Below, piece after piece: positions 1-18,998 of a stretch of DNA of 18,998 bases. The notes under the pieces are model-generated. The model saw only the letters and a program-made list of their open reading frames with translations. It ran no database searches and was not told the DNA's origin. Both the position numbers and the translations under genes were made by a program. The stretch covers positions 1 through 18,998 of the forward strand of contig CAZEBC010000063.1 in NCBI GenBank assembly GCA_964510165.1, written 5' to 3'. The stretch is from an uncultured bacterium. GTDB lineage: Bacteria; Abyssobacteria; SURF-5. Within the stretch, counting starts at the first letter, position 1. Each line of letters starts with the position of its first letter.

Positions 1-15
1 GTTTTTCTTAAGGCG

Positions 16-1551
16 ATGAGCGAGATCAATCCACAGATGAAGCGCTGCTACTACTGCGAGCAGGCGGTGAAGGTAACCGTCCACACATGTCCGCATTGCG
101 GGCGCTCGCTTGCAGAATTGGATCAGCAGAAATGGGAGCGGCTGGGACCGACCGCCGATATTGAAACGAACGGCTCGGGCGGGGAAACATCGTTCTCCAG
201 CGAGCGGAAGATTTCACTCATCGTGGGGTCTTCTTGTGTGCTTGCCATGGCGGTCATCGTTGCCGTTGTGGTTCCTCGCTTGTTGTCGAATGGACCCAAA
301 GGGAAAATCGCGAGCGCTCCGAACGCGCCGGGCCCCGAGAAGCTCAGCGCGAAGCAAGCATCGGAAGGCCGTTCATTTATCCGAATACATGAGGATTCCC
401 GGCCTTCGGGCGAAGCCGAGGCACCGGGGAAGAAGCGGGAGCAGGCGCGTACGGAGGCAATACGTCTTCGCAGCGCTCAGATTATGGAACAACTCCGAGA
501 AGAGGAAGCCGTAACGCCGTACACCATAAGCTTGAAATCGGGCCGCGAAATCAACTGCGACATAATCAGCGAGTCGGATGCCCGAATTACTCTCAGGCAC
601 AGGGGATTAACAACTACGCTGGAGCGGGAAGCGGTGGAGCGCATCGAGCACCGGCCGCCAGAGACGGTGGAGCGGGAACTGAAGGAGCTTGCGCTGGCGC
701 GGGCGACAGAGATGGTGGACGATGATTTTCGCGAAAACGGGCAGTACTGGGTTTCGCCGGAGCAAGAGGAACGGACCCAGTCCCGCCAAAGCACGACCAC
801 CTTACAAACAAAATCCGACGAAGACGGCCATACGAAGTCATTAAACAGTCGGACCGACGTTGAGAAGCTCGAATCGCTGCTTTCGCTAGCGCGAGAAATG
901 GGAGTAGTCAGGGCCGATTTTTTCGGGGGAACACTGCGGCTCGAGGATGCGAGCGGCGCGCGTTCTGGCGGCGGTTCGGATAGTGAATCCTTCGTTGCCT
1001 TTGAAGCGGAGGCTCGGCAGATGGACTTGGCGCAGGTTTGCAATTTTCTGGGTCTGCCGGTCCAACTAATCGGGCTATGTAATGCGGATGTCGAGGCGGC
1101 GTTCGATGGAGGGCGCGTAGCGACCTTGAGCGGGAAAGCGGAAATCACCGCCAATGAGGTGGCCATCCCGCCTTTAACGCTTGACGCGCTCATGCTCCCT
1201 CCCAATCAAGCGGCGTTTGTGGCGAAATTGTCGGCGGAAAAAGGGACGCTGGTCATAGAGGGATTGCTGCTTGAAGGGACGACGTACAGTATCTCGGGGA
1301 ACGGCACGGTTCGGTTGCCGGATAAGGTGGAGGAGAGCGTGATCGAAAGTTCGCTTTCGATCAAATTCAACAAGGCGCCAACGGTGACAGACACACGCCT
1401 CGGGGGAAAGGGAGCGCAATACCTTCTGGAGACTATTGTCGCATCAAAGAAGGCAATCCCTGTCAAGCTTTCGGGGCCGGTTTCCAAGCCTGAGATGCTG
1501 ATTGTGTATGATTCGGAGGTCGGGCCGGTTGTATGGAAGTTGGGACAGTGA
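16..1551 (+). CDS. Hypothetical membrane-anchored protein: N-terminal Zn ribbon, one TM helix, small beta domain, C-terminal AsmA/GspN-like beta-rich region
   Basis: 511 aa ORF. CYYC-x10-CPHC near the N-terminus; hydrophobic stretch LIVGSSCVLAMAVIVAVVVP; TISLKSGREINCDIISE..ITL..IE motif; C-terminal alternating amphipathic beta strands (LSGKAEIT, GTLVIEGLLLEG, ISGNGTVRL, IPVKLSGPVSKP). The product call is by resemblance only. Confidence 0.75.
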   Translation: MSEINPQMKRCYYCEQAVKVTVHTCPHCGRSLAELDQQKWERLGPTADIETNGSGGETSFSSERKISLIVGSSCVLAMAVIVAVVVPRLLSNGPKGKIASAPNAPGPEKLSAKQASEGRSFIRIHEDSRPSGEAEAPGKKREQARTEAIRLRSAQIMEQLREEEAVTPYTISLKSGREINCDIISESDARITLRHRGLTTTLEREAVERIEHRPPETVERELKELALARATEMVDDDFRENGQYWVSPEQEERTQSRQSTTTLQTKSDEDGHTKSLNSRTDVEKLESLLSLAREMGVVRADFFGGTLRLEDASGARSGGGSDSESFVAFEAEARQMDLAQVCNFLGLPVQLIGLCNADVEAAFDGGRVATLSGKAEITANEVAIPPLTLDALMLPPNQAAFVAKLSAEKGTLVIEGLLLEGTTYSISGNGTVRLPDKVEESVIESSLSIKFNKAPTVTDTRLGGKGAQYLLETIVASKKAIPVKLSGPVSKPEMLIVYDSEVGPVVWKLGQ

Positions 1552-1649: not shown

Positions 1650-4040
1650 TTATTGCTCTAACCCCATCTTCCTCAGAAGATCGGCGCAGCGAGGGTCGGA
1701 GCGGATGGGGTCAAAAGTGCGTTCCACCTTAAGGTAGCGCAGGAAGAAGTCTCGTTTTTCGAACGCACGGGTCAGCCACTCGAATGCAGGGTCTGTCTCG
1801 CCGAGCGCGATATAAAGTCTTGCGATTCCGGAGGGGGGTACGTATCCCTTGTTCGAGCGGGCGATCAGGTCGTTGAGAATCTTGCGGGCCTCATCCTCAT
1901 TGCCCAGCTTGGCGTGCGCGATGCCGATCCATGTTTCCACCACGGGGTTCCACGTTTTCGCGAGGGCTTCCTCCTTCTGAAACTCTGCGAGGGCGTCGCT
2001 GTTCCTCGACATATCGAGACAAGTAAGCCCTTTGTCGAGATGGACATACGCGAAGTTGGGGTCCATCTCGATGGTCTCTTGTATTGCGTCAAGGGCTTTG
2101 TCATACTGGCCAGCATAGTAATAGATATGTCCGACGGTTCTACTGGTGACAAGCGAGAGCGGGTCGAGTTCCTGTGCGAGCGTAATTTGTTGGATGGCCT
2201 CATCGAATCGCCCCATGAAAAGGAGGTCGAATGCATACCATCGGCGAGCGGCCGCGTAGCCGGGGTTCAGCTCGATGGCGCGCCTGCATTCGTCCTCTGC
2301 TCCCTTCCAGTCCCATTCATAATTCATCTTGATCCAAGCGTGTGAGGCGTGCGCCTCGGCGAGGGTCTCATCGATTTCGAGCGCCTTCACGACCGCCTGT
2401 TTCGCCTTCGGATAGGCCTCTTGCGGCGAGAATGCGCTGTAGAGGGGAAGGTTCATGTATGAATCGGCGAGGCCGGTATAGGCAGGGGCATAGTTCGGCG
2501 CTTTTTCTATCGCCCGCTCGAAATATTGGATTGCCTTCTTGAAACCGTCTTCTGTCATCTTGTTCCAGAAGTAGCGGCCTTGCAGATAGGAGTTATAGGC
2601 GTCAAAATCTACTGCCTGCTGTGAGGCGAATCTGGCGCTCTCGTCTCGCAAGAGCTTGATTTTCAGCCGGTCGACTATGGCGAGGGCGATTTCATCCTGG
2701 ACAGCGAAGATATCGGCCATGTCGCGGTCGTATCGCTCGGACCAGAGGTGGTAGCCGTCGGCCACGTTTACAAGCTGTGCGGTTATCCGCAGCCGGTTGC
2801 CCGCTCGCCGGACGCTGCCTTCGAGCACGGCGTCCACATTCAATTTGGCGCCGATGTCACGCACGTCAACCTTCGCGCCTTTGAACGAAAAGGCGGACGT
2901 GCGGGCCACAACCCTCAGGCTGCTGATCTGGCTGAGCGCATTGATGATCTCTTCGGCCAGGCCGTCGCAGAAGTATTCCTGGTCTTTCTCGGGACTCATA
3001 TCAACGAAGGGGAGGACCACGATTGAAGAGAAGGCCCCTTCGTCGGGAGGCGCCACCGCCGGCCTTTGAAGTCTGCGGGTGAAGAACGTCGCTGCGACAA
3101 CGAGACCGACCCCAGCAATGATGATGGCCGCGACCATTGTACGGTCAATACGGGATGATGCCGGGGATTTCGAGAGGACCACGGTTCCCGACGGAACGCG
3201 CTTTCCGCTCCCGCTTGGCGGTCTTTCGGGAACTGTCTGGTAATTCCGGATGTCATCCAGGAATTCGGAAACACTCGCGTATCGCTCCTCCCTGTCCTTC
3301 GCGAGTGCGCGCACCACGACCGTGCTCAAGCCAGGCGGCACGCGGGGGGTTATTTGCGCCACTTCCTCGGGTTCATCGTGGACGATCTTATGAATAAGAG
3401 AGGCGGGATTGGTCGCCACAAAAGGGGCACGGCCAGTCAACACCTCATAAAGGAGGACTCCCAGCGACCAGATGTCGCTGCGGTGGTCAATGGTTTCTCC
3501 GCGCGCCTGTTCCGGCGACATGTACTCGATGGTGCCCATGATGGTGTTGGCGGCTGTGAGCTGCGTGCGACCGGCCAGCTTGGCGAGGCCGAAGTCCATG
3601 ATCTTGGCCTGTCCCCTGCCGCTTATCATGATGTTGTCGCTCTTGATGTCGCGATGAACAATGCCCTTGTCATGTGCCTCGCGAAGGCCTTCGGCGACCT
3701 GAGCAATGATATCAACGGCCTCCTCGAGGCTGAGGGGTCCCCTTTCAATCCTATCTCTCAGGGTTTGTCCTTCGACGTATGCCATCGCGATGAAGGTATG
3801 ACCCTCGGCATCATCAATTTCATAGGTTGTGCAAATGTTCGGATGGTCCAACGAGGCGGCGGCCTGAGCCTCGTAAAGAAATCGGGTCTTCTCTTCATCG
3901 TTGCCCAGACTCCGGCGCGTGAGGAATTTCAGAGCGACAATGCGCTTGAGCTTGAGGTCTTCGGCCTTATAAACGACGCCCATGCCGCCCTCACCGAGCT
4001 TTTCGAGGACCCTATAGTGAGAAATCGTCTTCCCGATCAT
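1650..4040 (-). CDS. Hanks-type Ser/Thr protein kinase with TM segment, TolB-like/FlgO-like domain and TPR repeats
   Basis: Intact kinase motifs GEGGMG, VALK, HRDIKSDN, DFG, YMSPE and DIWSLG; hydrophobic MVAAIIIAGVGLVVAATFF; SIVVLPFVDMS..QEYFCDGLAEEII..LRVVARTSAF motif; multiple TPR-like repeats (AIELNPGYA, AQELDPLS). Start placed at MIGKTISHY (4040); the ORF is open to an ATG at 4106. Confidence 0.95.
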   Translation of the reverse strand: MIGKTISHYRVLEKLGEGGMGVVYKAEDLKLKRIVALKFLTRRSLGNDEEKTRFLYEAQAAASLDHPNICTTYEIDDAEGHTFIAMAYVEGQTLRDRIERGPLSLEEAVDIIAQVAEGLREAHDKGIVHRDIKSDNIMISGRGQAKIMDFGLAKLAGRTQLTAANTIMGTIEYMSPEQARGETIDHRSDIWSLGVLLYEVLTGRAPFVATNPASLIHKIVHDEPEEVAQITPRVPPGLSTVVVRALAKDREERYASVSEFLDDIRNYQTVPERPPSGSGKRVPSGTVVLSKSPASSRIDRTMVAAIIIAGVGLVVAATFFTRRLQRPAVAPPDEGAFSSIVVLPFVDMSPEKDQEYFCDGLAEEIINALSQISSLRVVARTSAFSFKGAKVDVRDIGAKLNVDAVLEGSVRRAGNRLRITAQLVNVADGYHLWSERYDRDMADIFAVQDEIALAIVDRLKIKLLRDESARFASQQAVDFDAYNSYLQGRYFWNKMTEDGFKKAIQYFERAIEKAPNYAPAYTGLADSYMNLPLYSAFSPQEAYPKAKQAVVKALEIDETLAEAHASHAWIKMNYEWDWKGAEDECRRAIELNPGYAAARRWYAFDLLFMGRFDEAIQQITLAQELDPLSLVTSRTVGHIYYYAGQYDKALDAIQETIEMDPNFAYVHLDKGLTCLDMSRNSDALAEFQKEEALAKTWNPVVETWIGIAHAKLGNEDEARKILNDLIARSNKGYVPPSGIARLYIALGETDPAFEWLTRAFEKRDFFLRYLKVERTFDPIRSDPRCADLLRKMGLEQ

Positions 4041-4112
4041 GGAAGTTGGCTCTTGTGATGCGGATATCCTCTCAAGAGGGAAAGACCCCCGGAGAGTCGG
4101 AGTCATGCGGTC

Positions 4113-4215: not shown

Positions 4216-4923
4216 TTACCAGTGAATCGAGGAGCCGAAGGTGAACAGGTTCGGGAATCGAAACACGTGCTCTTGCAGAACTTGTCCCGTGGCGGCCTGG
4301 AGACAGACCAGACAGCAATTCTCATCGTACAGTTCCTCGGGCGCGCATATTGCGGCGAAGGAGTCGAGCGGCACGGGAGGAAACGAGAGTTCTCGCCTCG
4401 CCTTCTCTTCCTTGAGATAGCGGAGATGTTGGGCGGGAAGACAGAGGGCCACGGGCGCCAGGTCGCCGTAACGGTGGCTGCGATACGGCTTCACGGCGTC
4501 GCCAATGGCCGCCACGAGCGCGGGGCTGTCCAGCCAGTTTTCCGGGATGCGGGGAGGCTCCAACCGAGGACTTTCTTCCGCGTGCATACCATACGTGGCG
4601 GCCACATATTCGATGGGACGCTTTTCGGTTTGCTCCCACGGGATTTCGGCGGTGCGGGTTTTCCCTTCTTGGAGGCGCACCAGATAAAGACGCCTCACGC
4701 CGGTGAGGAAGAAATCAAAATGCCACGCCTCGCATGTGCCATCATCTTGAATCACCGCATTTGAGTCGAAGACTGAAGTGTAAAGGCAACACAGGCAGGC
4801 GTTGTCGGCCTCGGCAGGGTGCGCGTCTCTCAGGCATTCAAGAGCAACCGAGTATGCCTCTCGCGCGGTCAATTGTTTCTTCCCGCCCGATCCCTTTCCG
4901 AACAGATTCTTGAACAGCGGCAT
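4216..4923 (-). CDS. Cys-rich hypothetical protein, possibly tandem PepSY-like folds
   Basis: 235 aa; strong RBS AGGAGGAGG 8 nt before the ATG; TAREAY..A, DG.C.AW.F.F, WLDS and VCLQAATGQVL motifs resemble PepSY-like domains; 10 Cys. Confidence 0.75.
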   Translation of the reverse strand: MPLFKNLFGKGSGGKKQLTAREAYSVALECLRDAHPAEADNACLCCLYTSVFDSNAVIQDDGTCEAWHFDFFLTGVRRLYLVRLQEGKTRTAEIPWEQTEKRPIEYVAATYGMHAEESPRLEPPRIPENWLDSPALVAAIGDAVKPYRSHRYGDLAPVALCLPAQHLRYLKEEKARRELSFPPVPLDSFAAICAPEELYDENCCLVCLQAATGQVLQEHVFRFPNLFTFGSSIHW

Positions 4924-5095: not shown

Positions 5096-6091
5096 TTACT
5101 TCTTTGACCGCGCGAGCGACCGGGCCATGCGCTCGAGCTTGAAGACGGTCATGAACTCGATGTTCTTGCTGATCCAGAGTTGCGCCTTCATGATGGCCTC
5201 GGTCAGCGAGCCTTCATAGGCGAGGCCTTTCAGAATCGTCTCAGGGTCGCGCGAGACCATCACGAAATCCTGCTTTGCGGTGCCGCCTTTCTTGACGGAC
5301 AGGTCGCCATCGGCAATCGTGAGGACGTACTTGCCGCCGGGCGACTTAACGAGGATTGTTCGTTTCCAACCCTCGATATCCTGTTTGGCGCGTTCGCAGG
5401 CATTCAGTTCGGCGACCACCGCCTTCGTCTTCTGGAACACCTTCTCGAACCGGGCCGCAGCTTTGTCGGTGGCGGCGGGCAGTTTCGGCTCGACTGCGGC
5501 CTCCCAGTCGATTTCGCTTTCCATCAGCGCCTTCTTATCAAGCTGCTGCTTGCTGAGCTCGGCTGCGGGAAGCCCGAAAATATCGGTAATACGACCGATG
5601 CGTTTGTCGCGGAACACGAGCTTCACCTCAGTGTCCTTCTTGAAGATGCCCGGCACGAGAATGCCGGTGGTCGTATAGAGGTTTACGGAGAGCGCCGTAT
5701 CCGCGCCGTCGAGCACCACTCTTCCACGCCCGAAGGGAACCTGCTCCTGGAACAGGCTGTTCGCGAAGTAGGTGATGGGCGGCGTGAAGAGCATCTTGCC
5801 GGTAGTGGCGACTTCGACTTCGGTCATCGGCGCGAAATCGCAGTCGGGGCAACACCACGCCATGGGCGGGACTCGCACGATGCCGCACTTGGTGCATTTG
5901 GCGCCAACAATCTTCTTTTCGTCACGCAAGGCGAGGAAAAAGGGCGTAAGTTCTCCCATGGTTCGCCGGTAAAAGGTGAACATCGCATCATTCAACTCGA
6001 GGTATTCTCTGCCATCGTCTCCCTTGAGGGTTCGTCCGCCCACGGGCGGAATCGCCGCATCAGGAATCACTTTTTGCACTTTTTTCGCCAT
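5096..6091 (-). CDS. DUF35-family Zn-ribbon/OB-fold protein (ChsH2/BbsA-like) fused to a C-terminal SCP2-like lipid-binding domain
   Basis: PFFLALRDEKKIVGAKCTKCG..VPP..CCPDC Zn ribbon followed by an OB-fold pattern (TGKML..T, GRVVLDGADT, VKLVF). The C-terminal ~100 aa (YVLTIADGDLSVKKG..DFVM..E..L.G.L..AIM..QL.I) fits the SCP2 pattern. Start re-set to MAKKVQK at 6091 behind RBS GAGGAGG (331 aa). Confidence 0.85.
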   Translation of the reverse strand: MAKKVQKVIPDAAIPPVGGRTLKGDDGREYLELNDAMFTFYRRTMGELTPFFLALRDEKKIVGAKCTKCGIVRVPPMAWCCPDCDFAPMTEVEVATTGKMLFTPPITYFANSLFQEQVPFGRGRVVLDGADTALSVNLYTTTGILVPGIFKKDTEVKLVFRDKRIGRITDIFGLPAAELSKQQLDKKALMESEIDWEAAVEPKLPAATDKAAARFEKVFQKTKAVVAELNACERAKQDIEGWKRTILVKSPGGKYVLTIADGDLSVKKGGTAKQDFVMVSRDPETILKGLAYEGSLTEAIMKAQLWISKNIEFMTVFKLERMARSLARSKK

Positions 6092-6107
6092 TATCGCTCG
6101 CCTCCTC

Positions 6108-7310
6108 TTACGCGGCTTCGTTTTCGAGCACGAAAGCAACGCCGTACTGCGCAACCGTGCTGCCGGTTCCATGGACCGCCGCCCGCTTGAGCCCCCGCTT
6201 TATCAGTTCCTTTCGGGCCGACCAAGCGGACATGATATTGCTGGCGCCGACGGCATGCCCGCAATATATGAGGCCGCCGGACGGGTTGACGACGATTTTT
6301 CCCCCGGGCATCATGATGCCGTCCTCTACCAGGGAGTCGCAGCGTCCGAGCGGAACAAAACCCATTTCGCCGAGCGTTATCTCGAGCTGGTGGACAAAGG
6401 CATCATGCACCTCGAGTACCTGTATTTCCTCCAGCGGGTTGGTGATGCCTGCCATCTTGTAAGCCATTTTTGCGGCAATGTGGTCGGACATGATGCGGTC
6501 CATCACCTTCTGGCCTTTTCCGGCGAACGAATGCTCATTGGACTCGCCGACACCGGTTATCCAGACTACGGGCACGCCCATATTGCGCGCGATTGCCTTG
6601 GCCTTTTCCTCTTCGGCAATGATCATTGCCGCCGCGCCCTCGGAATAAACGCAGATTTCGAGCTGCTTGAACGGGTGCACGACGACCCGCGAATTCAGGA
6701 CTTCTTCGGGCGTGACCTGGTCATGCTGCCTCTGAGCGAACTCGTTGGTCTTCACCTGCTGGCTCAGGAGGGCGGAAATCTGGGCGGTCACTCCCGGTTT
6801 CAGGTCGTTCGGATGGGTGTCCATATAGGCGAGGACGACTTCGGCGTAAGAATCGGAGGCGGTCCAGCCGATGGGCTGCTCGAAGAAGCTGTCGCCGGAC
6901 CATCCGATGGTCTTGATAACTTCGGGAGTGGCTGACATCGACATGAAATCGAAGCAGTCGGTGGACTTCTCCACGCCAAGGACGAGCATGACGTCGTAGC
7001 GGCCCGCGGCCACATAAGCGTGGGCGGCGGAAAGCGCATAGGCGCCGGTGGCGCCGCCGTTGCTCACGCGGATGCCGAACTTGTTCTGCATCCCGATGAG
7101 ACCCTGAAGCGCGTGCTCAGGTATGCAGGTCCGCTGGAAGATGTCGTTATATATCCCGTAGACGACCGCTTCCACCTCACTCACCGGGATACCGGCATCC
7201 TTAAGGGCATCGCGAGTCGCGTCTTGTGCGAGCGCATAATAGGTCTTTTCCAACCAGCGCCCCTTGAACGGGGTAACGGCTGCCCCTACGATTCCAACCT
7301 TTCTTCCCAT
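6108..7310 (-). CDS. SCP-x-type thiolase-family protein lacking the canonical nucleophilic Cys (probable aldolase-type member)
   Basis: 400 aa; VGIVGAAVTPF, LVLGVEK, SEGAAA, EVHDAF, VNPSGG..GHAVGA thiolase motifs; RVSNGGATG in place of the usual xxxACASG; RBS AGGAGGAG/CAGGAG upstream. Confidence 0.9.
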   Translation of the reverse strand: MGRKVGIVGAAVTPFKGRWLEKTYYALAQDATRDALKDAGIPVSEVEAVVYGIYNDIFQRTCIPEHALQGLIGMQNKFGIRVSNGGATGAYALSAAHAYVAAGRYDVMLVLGVEKSTDCFDFMSMSATPEVIKTIGWSGDSFFEQPIGWTASDSYAEVVLAYMDTHPNDLKPGVTAQISALLSQQVKTNEFAQRQHDQVTPEEVLNSRVVVHPFKQLEICVYSEGAAAMIIAEEEKAKAIARNMGVPVVWITGVGESNEHSFAGKGQKVMDRIMSDHIAAKMAYKMAGITNPLEEIQVLEVHDAFVHQLEITLGEMGFVPLGRCDSLVEDGIMMPGGKIVVNPSGGLIYCGHAVGASNIMSAWSARKELIKRGLKRAAVHGTGSTVAQYGVAFVLENEAA

Positions 7311-7543: not shown

Positions 7544-7572
7544 TTGACTTATCCCGGGATTGTGGCTAATAT
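7544..7572 (+). promoter_or_regulatory. sigma70-type promoter for ogt
   Basis: TTGACT (7544-7549) - 17 nt - TAATAT (7567-7572), divergent from the thiolase promoter. Confidence 0.6.
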
Positions 7573-7578
7573 GAGAAT

Positions 7579-8124
7579 ATGAGAAACGACAGAACTCCAA
7601 TAGCCAGCGCGGCGCCGATCTTCCACAATTCGTTCATGTCGCCCATCGGGTTGATTTATGTGGCGCTGGACGACAAGAAGGTGATAGCGCTCAGCTTCAC
7701 CTCGCGGGACGAGCAGGAGTTTCTGTGGGAGATTTCTTTGAAATGGGAACGGCCGCTCCGCCGGTCCGTCAATGCAACGAAGTTGCTCGTTTCCGAACTC
7801 CGCGAGTATTTCGAGGGAACCCGAAGACGCTTCAGTTTTTCCGCCGATTTCTCTCAATGCACCGATTTTCAAAGGAAAGTGCTCCTGAAGACCGCGGCAA
7901 TTCCGTATGGTCAGACACGCACCTACGGTTGGCTGGCGCAGCAGGCCGGCAGCCCCGGCGCGTCCCGCGCGGCCGGCCAGGTGATGGCGCGCAATCCCGT
8001 ACCGATAATCGTTCCGTGCCACCGAGTACTCGGCTCATCGGGCGAACTGCGAGGTTTTGCAGGCGGGCTGAGGGCCCTCGATCTCAAGAGGGCGTTGCTG
8101 GAGATTGAAGGAATTCGAGCATAG
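7579..8124 (+). CDS. ogt: Methylated-DNA--protein-cysteine S-methyltransferase
   Basis: SPIG, L.EYF.G.R..F, T.FQ..V, IPYGQTRTY, RAAGQ, NPVPIIVPCHRV active-site motif, K..LL..E. Confidence 0.96.
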   Translation: MRNDRTPIASAAPIFHNSFMSPIGLIYVALDDKKVIALSFTSRDEQEFLWEISLKWERPLRRSVNATKLLVSELREYFEGTRRRFSFSADFSQCTDFQRKVLLKTAAIPYGQTRTYGWLAQQAGSPGASRAAGQVMARNPVPIIVPCHRVLGSSGELRGFAGGLRALDLKRALLEIEGIRA

Positions 8125-8140
8125 AGGGGGAGGCATCCAG

Positions 8141-9106
8141 GTGGCTGGTCGGAGGCTGCACTATATTTCGATTGGCGTTGCTCTTGTTGCTTTCATGGTG
8201 CTTCTGCTCAGTCTCGTCCTGTTGCCGAAGGGGCAGGCGTTCTACCACCTGGCGCTTGCCCAAAGACTGATGCGGGAGGGCAATCTGCAAGGGGCGATAC
8301 AGCAGACGGAGAAGGCGTTGGCAATCCAGCCAAACAGCATAGTGGCGGTGCAGAACCTCGGCAAGTTCCATCTTGCCGCCGGGAATTATGAAGAAGCGGA
8401 AAAGGTTATCAATAGAATGATTGAGATTGCCCCGGAGCGCGCGGAGGCTTATTTCCATCTCGGGATCATCAAACTCCACGCGGGCGATTTCGAGGGCGCC
8501 CGACAGGCGGCCCATAAATCTATCTCCCTTTCACCACGGCTCGCGGGAAATTTCTACATACTCGGCGCGGTCGCGTTGGAAGAGAAAAACATAAAGATCG
8601 CAGAGGATTACATAAAGAAAGCCCTGGACTTGAACCCCAACGACGCCAATTCGTTGTTTCTGTCCGGCCGGGTCCATTACGAAAAGGAAGACTACGTGGC
8701 GGCGACGGAGGCCTTGGAAAAAATGACGAAGCTGGTTCCGAAAAATCCTTACGGCCATGCCATGCTTGGAATGTGCTATTTCCAGCAGAAGTTGTATATC
8801 CATGCGCTTGACGAGCTCAAGACCGCTGTGGACCTGGAGCCCTCGGACTACAATTCCATGTATAACATTGCCTGCGTCTACTCGATACAGGGCAAGACCA
8901 CACCTGCGCTAAAATGGCTTGAGAGAGCCATTGACAACGGATTCTCCGACTTCGACCACATGCGGAAGGATCAGGACCTCGACAACATTCGCAATGACCC
9001 GAAATACATTGCGCTGGTCAAGCGCGGGCCCGTTCAGCCACAGAAAACCGAAGGCGCGGCAGGTGACGCCGCCGGAAACGCGCCAGCGATGACGAACGGG
9101 GCATGA
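8141..9106 (+). CDS. Membrane-anchored TPR-repeat protein
   Basis: GTG at 8141 follows GGGGGAGG; N-terminal TM IGVALVAFMVLLLSLVLL; about 7 TPR repeats; terminal YNIAC.YS..G....AL.WL..AI..GF..D.DL.NIR.DP capping motif. Confidence 0.9.
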   Translation: MAGRRLHYISIGVALVAFMVLLLSLVLLPKGQAFYHLALAQRLMREGNLQGAIQQTEKALAIQPNSIVAVQNLGKFHLAAGNYEEAEKVINRMIEIAPERAEAYFHLGIIKLHAGDFEGARQAAHKSISLSPRLAGNFYILGAVALEEKNIKIAEDYIKKALDLNPNDANSLFLSGRVHYEKEDYVAATEALEKMTKLVPKNPYGHAMLGMCYFQQKLYIHALDELKTAVDLEPSDYNSMYNIACVYSIQGKTTPALKWLERAIDNGFSDFDHMRKDQDLDNIRNDPKYIALVKRGPVQPQKTEGAAGDAAGNAPAMTNGA

Positions 9107-14577: not shown

Positions 14578-15951
14578 CTATTGTTTCAGGCCGAACTTCT
14601 GGAGGCGGTAGCGAAGCGTATCCCTCGATATGCCGAGCAATTCGGCGGCGCGGGTCTGGTTTCCATCCGCCATGACAAGCGCCTTTTGAATGAGCTCTTT
14701 CTCAACTTCCTCGAGAGAAAGCCCGGCGGAAGGGAACTCGCCGGAGAAACTGGGCTTGCGTTCACTGCCGATGTAGGTGATGATCTCGGGGGGCAGGTCA
14801 TCGGCCTCGATGACCTCTCCGGTCTCGAGAATGAGAATCCGCTCGATCATGTTTCTAAGTTCGCGCACGTTGCCCGGCCACGGATAGCGCCTGAGCAGTT
14901 CCATCGCGTCCGGCGATACGCCTTTCATGGGTTTCTTGAATTCGACGCTGAACTTTTCGATGAAGAATCGCGCGAGTTTCGGGATATCTTCAGCATGCTC
15001 CCTGAGCGGCGGCAGATGGAGTGGGATCACCTGCAGTCGGTAGAAAAGGTCGTTTCGAAATCTACCCGCCTCGACCTCCACTTTCAGGTTCTTGTTAGTG
15101 GCCGCGATGATTCTGACATCCACGCCGATCTCCGACGTCCCGCCCACGCGCCTGAATCGTTTGGTCTCGATTGCTTTGAGCAGCTTCCCCTGGAGGGAAA
15201 AAGGCATGTCGCCAATCTCGTCGAGATAGATGGTGCCCCCGTCGGCGAGTTCGAAGAGCCCTTTCTTGCTGACGGCCGCACCGGTGAACGCGCCTCTCTC
15301 GTGTCCGAACAGTTCGCTTTCCAGCAACGTTTCGGGAAACGCCGAGCAGTTGATATCGAGGAACACGGCCTGTGAACGGTCGCTCAAGGAATGGATCGTG
15401 CGGGCTATCAGGTCCTTTCCGGTTCCGCTTTCTCCCTGGAGCAGCACGGTGGAGAACTTGCTCGCCGCGACTTTCCTGACGGTGGAGAGAACCTCCTTCA
15501 TGGCGGCCGAATCGCCGATGATGTTGTCGAATCCGTATTGTGCCGCCAGTTCGTCCTTGAGGGTGGTCAGTTCGCGGCGCATCCGCGCGGTCTCGAGCGC
15601 CATTTCAATGCGGAGCTTTACGTCTTCGATCTCAAACGGCTTGCAGATGTAATCAACGGCGCCGGTCTTGACGGCCCTCACGGCCGTCTTCACGTCACCG
15701 ATCCCCGTCACGATGATAAAGAGCGGATGAAGGTTTCTGGCTTTGGCCTCTTCCATTACCTGGAACCCGTCGATGCCGGGCATCTTGAGGTCAAGCAGGA
15801 CCACGTCCGGTTCATCCCTCTCCATCGAGGCGAGCGCTTCTTCGCCCGAAGGCGCCTGCTCCGTCTCGTAACCGGCTCCTTGCAGGTCCTTCTCAAGCGA
15901 CCATCGTATCAGGTGTTCGTCGTCCACTATCAGTATCTTCGGCTTTGGCAT
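14578..15951 (-). CDS. sigma54-dependent response regulator (NtrC/AtoC family: REC + AAA+ + Fis HTH)
   Basis: ILIVDDE, LLDLKMP, YICKPF receiver; GESGTGKD Walker A; ESELFGHERGAFTGA; LDEIGD Walker B; WPGNVREL; GNQTRAAELLGISRDTLRY HTH. Start re-set to MPKPK at 15951. Confidence 0.97.
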   Translation of the reverse strand: MPKPKILIVDDEHLIRWSLEKDLQGAGYETEQAPSGEEALASMERDEPDVVLLDLKMPGIDGFQVMEEAKARNLHPLFIIVTGIGDVKTAVRAVKTGAVDYICKPFEIEDVKLRIEMALETARMRRELTTLKDELAAQYGFDNIIGDSAAMKEVLSTVRKVAASKFSTVLLQGESGTGKDLIARTIHSLSDRSQAVFLDINCSAFPETLLESELFGHERGAFTGAAVSKKGLFELADGGTIYLDEIGDMPFSLQGKLLKAIETKRFRRVGGTSEIGVDVRIIAATNKNLKVEVEAGRFRNDLFYRLQVIPLHLPPLREHAEDIPKLARFFIEKFSVEFKKPMKGVSPDAMELLRRYPWPGNVRELRNMIERILILETGEVIEADDLPPEIITYIGSERKPSFSGEFPSAGLSLEEVEKELIQKALVMADGNQTRAAELLGISRDTLRYRLQKFGLKQ

Positions 15952-15981
15952 ATGCCCCGAACGTGTCCTCCTCTTGTACTG

Positions 15982-16029
15982 CCCCCCACCCCAACCCTTT
16001 CCCACCGAGAGAGGGCAGGGTGAGGGCTT
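15982..16029. repeat. BoxC-like palindromic repeat, copy 2 (inverted relative to 10041-10090), followed by a half REP (gctgcgccgctaca, 16035-16048)
   Basis: ccccccaccccaaccctttccc-acc-gagagagggcagggtgagggctt; about 42 of 50 positions match the reverse complement of copy 1 by manual alignment. Confidence 0.7.
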
Positions 16030-16068: not shown

Positions 16069-17985
16069 TCATCCGCGTTCTTCTGAAGGCGCGACACCGG
16101 TTACCCACGTCGGCGGGCCGGGTTGCTCCTCCGCGACCGGCAGAACCACAATGAACGTGGCGCCCCCCCCGACCTCGCTTCTCACAAGTATCTCACCATT
16201 ATGGTCCTTGATGATGCCGTAGCTGATCGAGAGCCCCAGGCCCGTGCACTCTCCCGGCTTTCGGGTCGTGAAAAATGGGTCAAATATCTTATCCATGAGT
16301 TCCGGCTTGATTCCCTCGCCTGTGTCGCGCATCGAGACGCGCACGGCACGATTTTCCTCATCGGCGGTTGTGGTCACATAAAGCGTTCCGCCCTCCGGCA
16401 TCGCCTTGCGCGCATTAACGACGATATTAAGAAACACCTGCTGCAACTCGTTGGAGTCGCCCATGACAACGGGCAGGTTCTCGGCGAAGTCGGTCTTGAC
16501 TTCAATCTTGCCCTTCCTTAAATTGGTCTGCATGAAACCGAGCGTCTCGCGGACAACCTCATTCAAGTCAAGCGGCCGGAAGTGCTTCTCGGATACGCGG
16601 GCGAACGTCAGCAGGCTGCCGACAATGGACTTGCACCTTTGAATTTCGCGCTCGACGTACACGAGGTTTTCCTGAAAGCCCTTGATCTCTTTTTCGCTCA
16701 GGTTATTCAGACCGCGTGAACGAACCGTCTCGGCAAAGACCTGGAGAAACGCGTAGATTCCGGCGAGAGGGTTGTTCAATTCGTGCGCCAGTCCGGCGGC
16801 CAGTTCTCCAACCGCCGCCAGTTTGGTGGATTGTATGAGCTTTGCCTGGGCGTCCGCGAGCTGACGGCCTCGCTCGGCCACGAGCTCTTCGAGCGTCTGG
16901 TTCCAGTGCTCGAGTTCTTCCCTGTACTTCTTCAGGTCGGTCACCATTCTGTTGAACGAATCGCTGAGTTCGCCCACCTCATCCCAGGTCTTCACCGGAA
17001 CGTACTGGTCAAGGTCGCCCTCGGCCACTTTCTTGCTCGCCTGGGAGAGCAGCCGGATGGGGCGAACCGTGCGGGAGACGGTCATGACATAGACGGGCAC
17101 GACAATGAGGAGCATCAAGCCGACAACCGTTGCGGTCGTCGTCAGGATGTTGTGCTTGGCCTTGACAAGGTCATCAATCAATTCGTAGACAGCGACAAGC
17201 ATCTCCTTCTTGTGGCTCACGCTGAGAGGGACAAGCGCCATCTTGACGGAGTGCTGGCCACACTGGAACTCCGCCAGGTACGGGGTGTCGGCGTTCAATG
17301 TCCTGCGCATGACATCCAAAGTTATGTCATGGCGAAATGGCTCGCATTCCTTTTCTTCCGCCGTGGCCCCGACAAGTTCTCCACGATAGTAAATCTCAAT
17401 CCTGTGTGCGCCAGTCTTCTGAAGCAAGCCCTGAAGAAAGGCCGTGTCAATGGCTCTCCCTACCGTTATCACTGAGCGACTGCCGGCCCTGCCTTCGATG
17501 GGGGCGACCGCCGCTATGGATACGCCGCTCCTGCCGCGGTCCCGGGAAGAGACCACGCCGGTTGTCCGTATGCCCAACATTCCGAGCCTGCTCAAGGACG
17601 GGTCATGACCGGGCACTTCAGCGCCTCCGCCAATATTGGAATAAATCTGGTTCTCCTTCAGGAACTCTAGCAAGTAAATGAGAATGAGACGGCTGTCGCG
17701 GGCTTCAGAAATGTGTCCCGCCAGCTTTTCGGTGTCAGCCATGAACTGCGAGTAGAACGCAAGGCTTGTCTCCATGTCGGAGACAACCTCCTGAATGATC
17801 CGGACATCTTGCTTGAGCTTGTCGTTGACCCGTGCTTCCACATTGGCCGACACAAGGTCAGTCATTGCATAGATGGTCATGGCGCCGATCAGGACCATCA
17901 CGATGATAAACGGGATGAATATCTTGTTCTGAATCTTGTTTGCGCGCGCGAGGAAGCGTTTCCAGGAGGTAACGAGACCGGCCAT
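16069..17985 (-). CDS. Sensor histidine kinase (TM - periplasmic Cache-like region - TM - HAMP - HisKA - HATPase)
   Basis: TM1 IFIPFIIVMVLIGAMTIYAM; TM2 VVGLMLLIVVPVYVM; HAMP (P...L......VAEGDL, DEVGELSDSFN.M); H-box AHELNNPL; N-box QVFLNIVVNA; DTGEGI, FDPFFTT, TGLGL. The ATG at 17985 lies 2 nt after the upstream stop. Confidence 0.96.
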   Translation of the reverse strand: MAGLVTSWKRFLARANKIQNKIFIPFIIVMVLIGAMTIYAMTDLVSANVEARVNDKLKQDVRIIQEVVSDMETSLAFYSQFMADTEKLAGHISEARDSRLILIYLLEFLKENQIYSNIGGGAEVPGHDPSLSRLGMLGIRTTGVVSSRDRGRSGVSIAAVAPIEGRAGSRSVITVGRAIDTAFLQGLLQKTGAHRIEIYYRGELVGATAEEKECEPFRHDITLDVMRRTLNADTPYLAEFQCGQHSVKMALVPLSVSHKKEMLVAVYELIDDLVKAKHNILTTTATVVGLMLLIVVPVYVMTVSRTVRPIRLLSQASKKVAEGDLDQYVPVKTWDEVGELSDSFNRMVTDLKKYREELEHWNQTLEELVAERGRQLADAQAKLIQSTKLAAVGELAAGLAHELNNPLAGIYAFLQVFAETVRSRGLNNLSEKEIKGFQENLVYVEREIQRCKSIVGSLLTFARVSEKHFRPLDLNEVVRETLGFMQTNLRKGKIEVKTDFAENLPVVMGDSNELQQVFLNIVVNARKAMPEGGTLYVTTTADEENRAVRVSMRDTGEGIKPELMDKIFDPFFTTRKPGECTGLGLSISYGIIKDHNGEILVRSEVGGGATFIVVLPVAEEQPGPPTWVTGVAPSEERG

Positions 17986-17987
17986 TG

Positions 17988-18998
17988 TCAAGAGCTTCCC
18001 TCCTTACTGTCGGCAAGGAGGTCTTCGGGTTTCACGCCGATTTCGCCCAGCATCTTGTAGAGCTCGGCGTAGTCGGAGTCATGCGTGGGAAGGAACTGCC
18101 TGGCATTGCCCAACGCGGCAAGCGCTTCCTTGCCGTCGGACTGCAGCGGCATGTCAAGCAAGAACTGCAGTATCGTCGAACCGATGTTAAAACCGGGAGA
18201 TGGCGGTTCATAAGACGATTCGGCCCGCGCGGCCCTTCCATGGTGACAGTCGAAACACGGGAGACTCAAGCTCTTCCTCACGACAAATGCGTTGGAGGGC
18301 ACGGGAGGCGATTGCGCCAGAATCCTGAGGCTTGACTTCAAGGCCGGATTCTCATTGGCGAGCATGAGGTATATGAGGTCCTTGGCCGCGCCCACGTCCG
18401 CCTTGTTATGAAGCACCGCAAGGATTGCATCCTCATGCGTGTCGACAAAGGCCGCTTCGGAGAAATGATCCCGGTAGTCATTTATCCCATGTCTCTTGAA
18501 ATAATAAAGGGGGAACACGTACCCGGCGGTAGTCGTCCGCCCCCCCATCACGAGCCGTTTCCCTTTCATGTCATCAATGTCCTCAATGCCGCTGTCCGCG
18601 CGAACAAAGATGATTCCCCGATACGCGGAAAGACCGTTATAATCAGGCCTGGCCAATACGTCCACATAGTTGTGGACCGTGGCATATGCAAAGCTGCCAA
18701 GAAACGCCGCGTTTATGTCACCATCGGTCAACGCGCGACAGGCTTCGATATATGTGGAGAAAAGCTTCAGCTTCACGGAGAACCTTTCCCCAAGGCGACG
18801 CGACAGATACTCCACAAGTGGCTGGTATCTCTGGTTTTGAACCATCACGTTCTGCTCGGGCACTATGCCGATCACGATCTCGTATCGTTGCGGGACATAC
18901 CCGGAATTCTCTAAAATATGCGACCCCGTGTCGGAAAAGATGAAATTGACAAATCTCATCGTGGCCGCTTTGGGGGACCGCCCAAGTATCAGCCCGAG
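17988..18998 (-). CDS. Periplasmic solute-binding protein, 5'-truncated: tail of a PstS-like domain fused to a PhnD-like (phosphonate-bd) domain carrying a CxxCH insertion
   Basis: The frame is open to the window edge (LGLILGRSPKAATMRFVNFIFSDTGSHILENSGYVP, a typical PstS/ModA-type C-terminus). It continues with PhnD-like motifs IGIVPE, Y.PL.EYL, AAFLGSF, YRG.IFVR.DSGI....D.KGK, TTAGY.FP, HE..I.AV....AD.GA.K, F.PT.DSDY, and CFDCH at 18243-18257. Confidence 0.88.
   Translation of the reverse strand, partial: LGLILGRSPKAATMRFVNFIFSDTGSHILENSGYVPQRYEIVIGIVPEQNVMVQNQRYQPLVEYLSRRLGERFSVKLKLFSTYIEACRALTDGDINAAFLGSFAYATVHNYVDVLARPDYNGLSAYRGIIFVRADSGIEDIDDMKGKRLVMGGRTTTAGYVFPLYYFKRHGINDYRDHFSEAAFVDTHEDAILAVLHNKADVGAAKDLIYLMLANENPALKSSLRILAQSPPVPSNAFVVRKSLSLPCFDCHHGRAARAESSYEPPSPGFNIGSTILQFLLDMPLQSDGKEALAALGNARQFLPTHDSDYAELYKMLGEIGVKPEDLLADSKEGSS

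Follow-up and report, generated by a model that had tools for sequence, protein, structure and literature searches.

A putative heme c-bearing tandem solute-binding lipoprotein as a probable co-sensor of a dCache-type histidine kinase in Abyssobacteria

The window analysed here is the entire contig CAZEBC010000063.1 (18,998 nucleotides; C63 below) of a 4.17-Mb, 325-contig assembly of an uncultured bacterium of the Abyssobacteria lineage SURF-5 (GCA_964510165.1; G000 below). Its far end encodes, on the minus strand, the C-terminal part of a lipoprotein in which two solute-binding protein (SBP) modules, one PstS-like and one PhnD-like, follow one another, and the second of them bears a short insert with a CxxCH motif. 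Comparison with homologous proteins and loci makes it reasonably probable that this lipoprotein is a heme c-bearing co-sensor of the histidine kinase encoded directly downstream and not a transporter subunit.

The motif is read on the minus strand as CCG TGT TTC GAC TGT CAC CAT (P-C-F-D-C-H-H) within the peptide …PSNAFVVRKSLSLPCFDCHHGRAARAESSYEPPSPGFNIGSTILQFLLDM…, and this reading reproduces exactly the CFDCH that an earlier note on this DNA, made from the letters alone, had reported at 18243-18257. A histidine placed immediately after the second cysteine of CxxC is the signature of heme c attachment and sets such sites apart from CxxC switches. The features of the lipoprotein gene are as follows:

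17988..18998, minus strand: 3' part of the tandem-SBP lipoprotein gene, with the last 336 codons and the stop; a single open frame that leaves the contig end.
G000 contig C126:3-698, minus strand: 5' part of the tandem-SBP lipoprotein gene, at the contig start; encodes the N-terminal piece, then the PstS-like module.
18069..18872, minus strand: PhnD/PtxB/AioX-like class II solute-binding domain (PF12974), from a Pfam match, PDB sequence matches and Foldseek.
Roughly 18192-18263, minus strand: clade-specific insert of about 24 residues, LPCFDCHHGRAARAESSYEPPSPG, which follows the strand 'NAFVVRKSLS'.
18243-18257, minus strand: CFDCH, candidate covalent heme c attachment site (two thioether Cys and the proximal His), invariant in homologues.
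18957-18959, minus strand: Met262, candidate distal heme ligand (residue 14 of the fragment), in the last helix 'TMRFVNF' of the PstS-like module.

The earlier note had proposed a bound heme and had named, among the things to be checked, the conservation of CxxCH in close homologues, an export signal in the full protein and the presence of cytochrome c maturation genes. Is the motif, then, an accident of this one sequence or a property of a family? With Cys at about 1% and His at about 2%, a CxxCH is expected by chance in about 1 per thousand proteins of 336 aa. A homologue search in a collection of 5.8 billion proteins gave 242 matches; among the best 120 of these, the motif was present in 43/43 of the closest homologues (100% down to 38% identity) and in 0/77 of the next ones, whose sequences contain no CxxCH at any position. 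A locus scan with one genome per species yielded 45 loci, of which 31 carry the motif at the same aligned site, 2 are cut before the site and 12 are without it. Finally, an exhaustive profile search of 1.84 billion 50%-identity cluster representatives returned 26,878 relatives at E ≤ 1e-3, and CxxCH was found in 10 of the 146 further top representatives listed, always at this site and always in the top-scoring group. The motif is thus conserved in close homologues, and its invariance down to 38% identity indicates that it is no chance match and excludes a neutral relic. The motif loci come from metagenome-assembled genomes of Abyssobacteria, Poribacteria, Thermodesulfobacteriota, Syntrophobacterales, Acidobacteriota, Nitrospinota and Myxococcales, and members of the family occur in subsurface and sediment bacteria belonging to at least six phyla.

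The surroundings of the motif are far less constant. In the alignment, a 26-column gap is seen in 13/13 motif-less relatives where the 43 motif proteins bear the insert, which agrees with the earlier observation that in PhnD-family relatives the 'vRk-l' strand is followed directly by the next helix. The bounds first given for the insert (18180-18266) did contain it, together with a few flanking residues. Within the insert, C-[FYLVM]-x-C-H alone is conserved (C496, C499 and H500 are invariant in the numbering of P0002, a protein 81% identical to the window), while the remainder varies in sequence and length, and the alignments of motif proteins contain no conserved distal ligand inside it. The notion of a self-contained mini-cytochrome loop of ~25 aa was therefore given up, the more so as it is in the other module that motif-associated residues are found.

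The lipoprotein gene is divided between two contigs of the assembly. The 383-aa fragment P0001, which comes from a different assembly and shows 100% identity to the window, spans part of both the C126 and the C63 piece; thus, the gene is intact, and the break represents an assembly gap, not a truncation. The N-terminus encoded on C126 consists of a hydrophobic signal peptide with the lipobox LLPAC (…VSVLFCLIILCLLLPAC-DDQQ…; assigned by visual inspection), and 26 full-length homologues, which likewise open with lipoprotein signal peptides, all retain the lipobox Cys. Full-length homologues are 569-592 aa long and contain PF12849 (PBP_like_2, PstS-like) followed by the PF12974 PhnD-like module. 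By these comparisons, the product of the window gene is predicted to be an exported tandem PstS-like and PhnD-like lipoprotein of about 580-590 aa, so that the export signal expected by the earlier note is present, and its description of a PhnD-like protein holds for the PF12974 domain but has to be widened to include the PstS-like module fused in front. The ATG at 18957-18959 (minus strand), offered as the start of a 323-aa open reading frame (ORF), corresponds to an internal Met, and annotation from there drops the signal peptide and the first module.

The assignment of the second module was consistent across methods. PF12974 (Phosphonate-bd) matched residues 43-310 of the 336-aa frame over the full profile (1-242) with E 5.6e-52 and 177 bits (cut-off 27); it was the sole match in the Pfam scan of the window fragment, which therefore does not belong to the Cache families such as sCache_heme. 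The PDB sequence search returned PtxB (4e-18), then PhnD, HtxB, AioX (6esk, 6.5e-12) and ArrX (6x6b, 3.7e-8). An AlphaFold2 (AF2) model of P0002 (mean pLDDT 83.7) showed two well-folded modules, the first of which was matched by Foldseek to phosphate-binding PstS proteins (4gd5, TM 0.91) and the second to ArrX (TM(target) 0.92) and to AioX, PtxB, PhnD and HtxB (range 0.73-0.92). As modelled, the second module has the two-lobe class II SBP fold. Conservation of Y331, Y374, T404-T405-A406-G407, H436, K454 and N484 extends from motif proteins (n=51) to motif-less relatives (n=132), and the Tyr, Tyr, T-T-A-G and His among these residues align with Tyr, Tyr, S-T-S and His of PtxB, positions that we take to line the pocket of PtxB and PhnD and to contact the bound atoms. 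Judging from these alignments, the oxyanion pocket of the PhnD-like module looks retained.

Could the host attach heme c to an exported protein? Pairs of ResB and CcsA genes were found on three contigs (C85, C135 and C21) of the window genome, which is estimated to be 97% complete, and no match to CcmE was obtained in it; therefore, cytochrome c maturation appears to proceed by System II, and the maturation genes foreseen by the earlier note are in place. PF01578 genes were also detected in 5/5 other carrier genomes. Together with the signature itself, these data lead us to infer from sequence that heme c is covalently attached at the candidate CxxCH site.

The lipoprotein gene is followed on the same strand by the genes of a two-component system:

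16069..17991, minus strand: sensor histidine kinase with the order transmembrane segment (TM), periplasmic domain, TM, HAMP, HisKA and HATPase_c; its start overlaps or abuts the lipoprotein stop.
17122..17874, minus strand: dCache-like periplasmic domain of the kinase (residues 40-290), from AF2 and Foldseek.
14578..16005, minus strand: sigma54-dependent response regulator with a receiver domain (REC), an AAA+ sigma54 activator domain and a Fis-type helix-turn-helix (HTH); follows the kinase.

No Pfam family was matched by the kinase periplasmic domain (about 240 aa). Its AF2 model (pLDDT 82.3, pTM 0.79) consists of a long N-terminal helix and then two alpha/beta modules, and Foldseek related it to PctD, PctA, TlpA, Tlp3 and the LuxQ periplasmic domains (3c30, 2hje, 2hj9), with E from 2.5e-8 to about 1e-6 and TM of about 0.5-0.6. 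The true start of the response regulator is probably an internal ATG before 'MPKPKILIVDD'.

To what extent is this pairing conserved? All ORFs in the 31 motif loci were scanned with phmmer, and at least 600 bp of downstream room was required. A homologous kinase lies directly downstream in 29/29 motif loci with such room; L020 and L037 end too early to be counted, and the kinase of L025 is cut by the contig end. The motif-less two-domain relatives L041, L042, L045 and L047 also precede kinases, which indicates that the pairing of SBP and kinase is an older core relationship that predates the insert. The output differs among loci: a sigma54 regulator follows the kinase in L013, L014, L016, L029, L043 and L051, a hybrid kinase with REC is found in L019, L023, L024, L038, L040 and L057, a small REC protein in L034 and a PilZ fusion in L044. 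The suggestion of the earlier note that the protein is a receptor fits this arrangement, in which a kinase gene always follows and the flanks examined contain no transporter genes. By analogy with LuxP on LuxQ or AioX on AioS, the lipoprotein would dock on the dCache domain of the kinase. A co-fold of the mature L014 lipoprotein with heme and its own kinase periplasmic domain scored 0.01 (mark 0.32); run without controls, it speaks neither for nor against binding.

Two kinase genes deserve separate mention. In L031 (11647-13833), on an Acidobacteriota chromosome, only a remnant of 335 aa (64.7 bits) is left of the kinase after the motif protein, next to an integrase gene of the phage type, possibly as a result of disruption by a mobile element. 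On C126 (877-3637; L060), upstream of the lipoprotein gene and divergent from it, lie a cytidylate-kinase-like/receiver fusion and a dCache histidine kinase.

Heme c is normally held by Met and His as axial ligands. Motif proteins were compared position by position with their relatives (residue numbers are those of P0002). Two residues of the PstS-like module co-occur with the motif. Met262 is Met in 40/40 motif proteins and 30/30 motif-clade loci and in none of the motif-less two-domain relatives (0/8 in the protein set and 0/8 among the loci). At this position, the 8 motif-less relatives of the protein set and, by the three commonest residues listed, 67 other PstS-like sequences have Lys, Arg, Asp or the like, and the 8 motif-less loci read K, R, K, E, K, K, K and T. 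For His113 ('YLHLA'), the counts are 38/40 motif proteins and 26/29 loci, compared with 0/8 and 0/8 of the motif-less two-domain relatives, every one of which has Pro or Ala there. The same comparison of the C-terminal module yielded no ligand-type residue specific to motif proteins. On this evidence, Met262 and His113 are candidate distal heme ligands, Met262 being the most likely and His113 the less likely one. The linker between the domains is short, and the insert comes after the strand that returns to the first PhnD-like lobe (secondary structure taken from the AF2 model, topology inferred), which makes the proximity of Met262 and His113 to the insert plausible.

Met565 was also tried as a distal ligand and rejected: it was present in 43/43 motif proteins vs 28% of relatives in the first set, and in the wider set its counts were 50/51 for motif proteins and as many as 47/132 for relatives. 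The position is occupied by Leu, Ile or Ser in L031, L032 and L038.

If the kinase constitutes the constant partner of the lipoprotein, what might the system control? ORFs with at least 5 CxxCH were found in the fetched flanks of 14/31 motif loci, many of them on short contigs. In L014 (3363-9012), L016 (4067-9817) and L029 (3918-9648), a cluster on the same strand directly precedes the sensor operon and encodes an NHL-repeat protein (~830 aa), a CsgG-like protein (in L029 only), an LpoB-like lipoprotein and a 20-CxxCH cytochrome with Paired_CXXCH_1 that is MtrC/MtrF-like; its make-up suggests an as yet uncharacterised module for electron transfer at the outer surface. In L043, genes for an MtrA-like cytochrome and an MtrB/PioB porin come after the regulator, and a -24/-12-like TGGCAT-N5-TTGCT (L043:15395) is located between the sigma54 regulator and this pair. 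The strict sigma54 -24/-12 pattern gave single matches in L043, L017, L026 and L032. Such frequent multiheme cytochrome and porin-cytochrome neighbours, combined with the spread over at least six phyla, make the system a candidate regulator of extracellular electron transfer, the control of which is poorly understood.

A further arrangement was observed in the subclade comprising L017, L018, L026, L030, L032 and L036, where a convergent gene for a 12-CxxCH cytochrome comes right after the kinase (for example L017:6454-7353). In L017, L026 and L030, a sigma54 regulator lies beyond this cytochrome gene on the same minus strand.

The co-sensor reading can be put as a sequence of conditional steps. 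System II (ResB/CcsA) would attach heme c to the CxxCH of the insert in the periplasm, and the lipoprotein would then act as an extracytoplasmic co-sensor of the downstream dCache-HAMP histidine kinase in a manner resembling LuxP/LuxQ and AioX/AioS; in the window organism, the kinase would signal to the sigma54-dependent response regulator. Through the heme, the redox poise of the periplasm or a small heme ligand (NO, for example) would join the oxyanion recognised by the pockets as a second input. With Met262 as its sixth ligand, the heme would bridge the two modules, so that a change in ligation or oxidation would shift their arrangement and hence the activity of the kinase. The multiheme cytochrome genes near the system in many relatives would be its likely targets.

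A more specific version, which we put forward only tentatively and consider doubtful in its details, is that of a redox-latched tandem binding protein whose sixth heme ligand, Met262, is supplied by the last helix of the PstS-like module. Heme c would then be anchored covalently on the insert, where this leaves the hinge of the PhnD-like module. The two modules would be released or re-locked whenever the periplasmic cytochrome pool oxidised or reduced the heme, or whenever NO or some other ligand took the place of the Met. The latch would gate the engagement of the dCache kinase by the oxyanion-loaded protein, and the receptor would in this way combine the presence of an oxyanion or acceptor with the state of reduction of the periplasm and would control genes for multiheme cytochromes and extracellular electron transfer.

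Several observations weigh against these interpretations. The heme of the lipoprotein and of its homologues is a prediction from sequence, and residues 497-518 of the insert in P0002 have an AF2 pLDDT below 50. His113 is not universal, being replaced by Pro in L028 and by Gln in L033 and L035; Met565 serves as a warning that not every conserved Met carries information; and the co-occurrence of Met262 and His113 with the motif could come from a single ancestral event. The C-terminal module was also placed in a quick tree of 100 rows, for which 40 of the 123 single-domain relatives had been drawn at random and the insert columns taken out. This tree needs 3 label changes for the motif, whereas its starred branches force only 1; it neither demonstrates one origin nor rules it out, and independent coupled losses are not claimed. 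As for the supposed targets, no multiheme cytochrome gene is adjacent to the system in the window genome (window and C126), the 20-CxxCH cytochrome of L014 used as a query was not found in this 97% complete genome, and the strict sigma54 -24/-12 pattern did not occur in the window, C126, L013, L014, L016, L029 or L051.

What else could the motif proteins be? One alternative, to which we assign a small but real probability, is that CxxC(H) is a non-heme site, either a redox-active disulfide working as a thiol switch or a binding site for Zn, Fe or Cu, and that the lipoprotein serves the same kinase as a thiol-redox or metal sensor. The invariance of just three insert residues would suit such a site, as would the low confidence with which the insert was modelled; the case for heme is itself built on sequence, and the pairing with a kinase is compatible with any sensing chemistry. 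However, in all sequences seen the His directly behind the second Cys shows the same invariance as the two Cys, the pair of residues accompanying the motif consists of a Met and a His, the usual axial ligands of heme, maturation genes are present in all carrier genomes tested, and a Cys-rich metal site would call for a third or fourth conserved Cys, which the alignments do not contain. Somewhat less probable still is the possibility that heme c is attached but serves chiefly redox chemistry: the lipoprotein would carry electrons, or act as a small oxidoreductase on the oxyanion that it binds, in concert with neighbouring multiheme cytochromes, and the kinase would sense something else. The cytochrome genes near it in 14/31 motif loci, its position after the 20-CxxCH cytochrome gene in L014, L016 and L029 on the same strand and the retained oxyanion pockets all point in this direction. 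Nevertheless, the kinase is the only constant neighbour (29/29), whereas the cytochrome neighbours vary and none is adjacent in the window genome; moreover, motif-less two-domain relatives also precede kinases, which makes the pairing of SBP and kinase the older relationship, and SBP-dependent dCache kinases are described as an established class (PMC8050422).

A quite different view is suggested by the source annotations of the homologues, which name them phosphate/phosphite/phosphonate ABC transporter substrate-binding proteins, and by the NCBIfam profile TIGR01098, a broad phosphate/phosphite/phosphonate SBP subfamily whose cut-off of 112 bits was passed with 126.6 bits. According to this view, the lipoprotein would be an ordinary binding protein of a phosph(on)ate or phosphite ABC transporter with a motif that has no function. 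We regard it as very improbable. The score against the PhnD equivalog TIGR03431 (127.7 bits) is far under the cut-off of 261.1, and the PstS-family profile, with 145.3 bits vs a cut-off of 206.6, was likewise not reached; the protein thus falls outside the PhnD equivalog. ABC permease or ATPase genes were absent from the window, from C126 and from flanks of about 12 kb at 10 related loci, where the sole ABC_tran match was a UvrA-like ORF in L031, and a motif without function is hard to reconcile with invariance down to 38% identity. The co-sensor reading therefore remains the one that we favour, and the databases appear to misname the family as a phosphate or phosphonate transporter subunit.

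Housekeeping genes (for a CCA-adding enzyme, a NadD-like protein and an HD protein) lie downstream of the regulator. Long ORFs without a Pfam family at E ≤ 1e-3 were found at 1-1551 (plus strand), 4216-4923 (minus strand) and 7549-8515 (minus strand), one of which is a 516-aa frame leaving the contig start. The minus-strand genes at 1650-4106 and 5096-7310 include a Ser/Thr protein kinase with C-terminal TPR repeats and an adjoining thiolase-like gene. A gene overlapping the latter gave matches below the Pfam cut-offs to a rubredoxin-like zinc ribbon (21.2 bits, cut-off 23.2) and SCP2 (20.2 bits, cut-off 21.3).

Solute-binding proteins are generally treated as cofactor-free ligand clamps, and no heme c-bearing solute-binding protein was found in the published literature (open full text mainly, with few subscription journals); a 2021 review of SBP signalling does not contain the words 'cytochrome' or 'CXXCH' (PMC8050422). 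If the present reading is true, a heme c in an SBP would extend the CXXCH-capture mode of sensor evolution to a second great family of extracytoplasmic receptors and would provide a compact receptor able to read ligand and redox state together. Should the more tentative redox latch also be true, it would represent the first cofactor-bearing SBP sensor and a second, independent capture of a CXXCH fragment by a sensor fold.

Among known systems, the arrangement in the window resembles that of the AioX/AioS/AioR and ArxX/ArrX three-component arsenic sensing systems, for which a PF12974-type periplasmic protein is described that is encoded with a kinase and a sigma54-type regulator and serves as a sensor rather than a transport subunit (PMC8050422, PMC5908839). 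AioX and ArrX are single-module, cofactor-free proteins, whereas the window protein has a PstS-like module in front and the CxxCH insert, and the identity between them and the window family is about 19-20% in Foldseek alignments. The periplasmic domain of AioS is listed as sCache-like (PMC8050422), while that of the window kinase is dCache-like. A free periplasmic SBP working with a kinase that has a double PAS/Cache periplasmic fold is also known from LuxP-LuxQ, ChvE-VirA and CBP-ChiS. In those systems, however, the SBP belongs to the unrelated type I family (sugar or AI-2) and bears no heme, whereas in the window a class II SBP is involved, and its binding to the kinase would be by analogy. 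TtrS-type kinases are comparable in that a PF12974 domain senses an oxyanion (tetrathionate) for the control of respiratory genes, as reported in PMC11293645; there, the kinase itself contains the domain, which lacks a heme motif, whereas the window protein is a separate lipoprotein with two modules.

The likeness with respect to heme is to sCache_heme (DUF3365/Tll0287) and to GSU0582/GSU0935, extracytoplasmic sensor domains with a short CXXCH insert (PMC12889525, PMC3460858, PMC3831638), for which covalent heme c is described and which have been proposed as sensors of NO or redox state (PMC12889525, PMC3460858). The 2026 preprint on Cache_heme refers to the insertion of a CXXCH fragment into a sensor domain as the first of its kind (PMC12889525). 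The scaffold in those proteins is Cache/PAS, in contrast to the class II solute-binding fold of the window protein, in which the candidate distal ligands are located in a separate, fused module.

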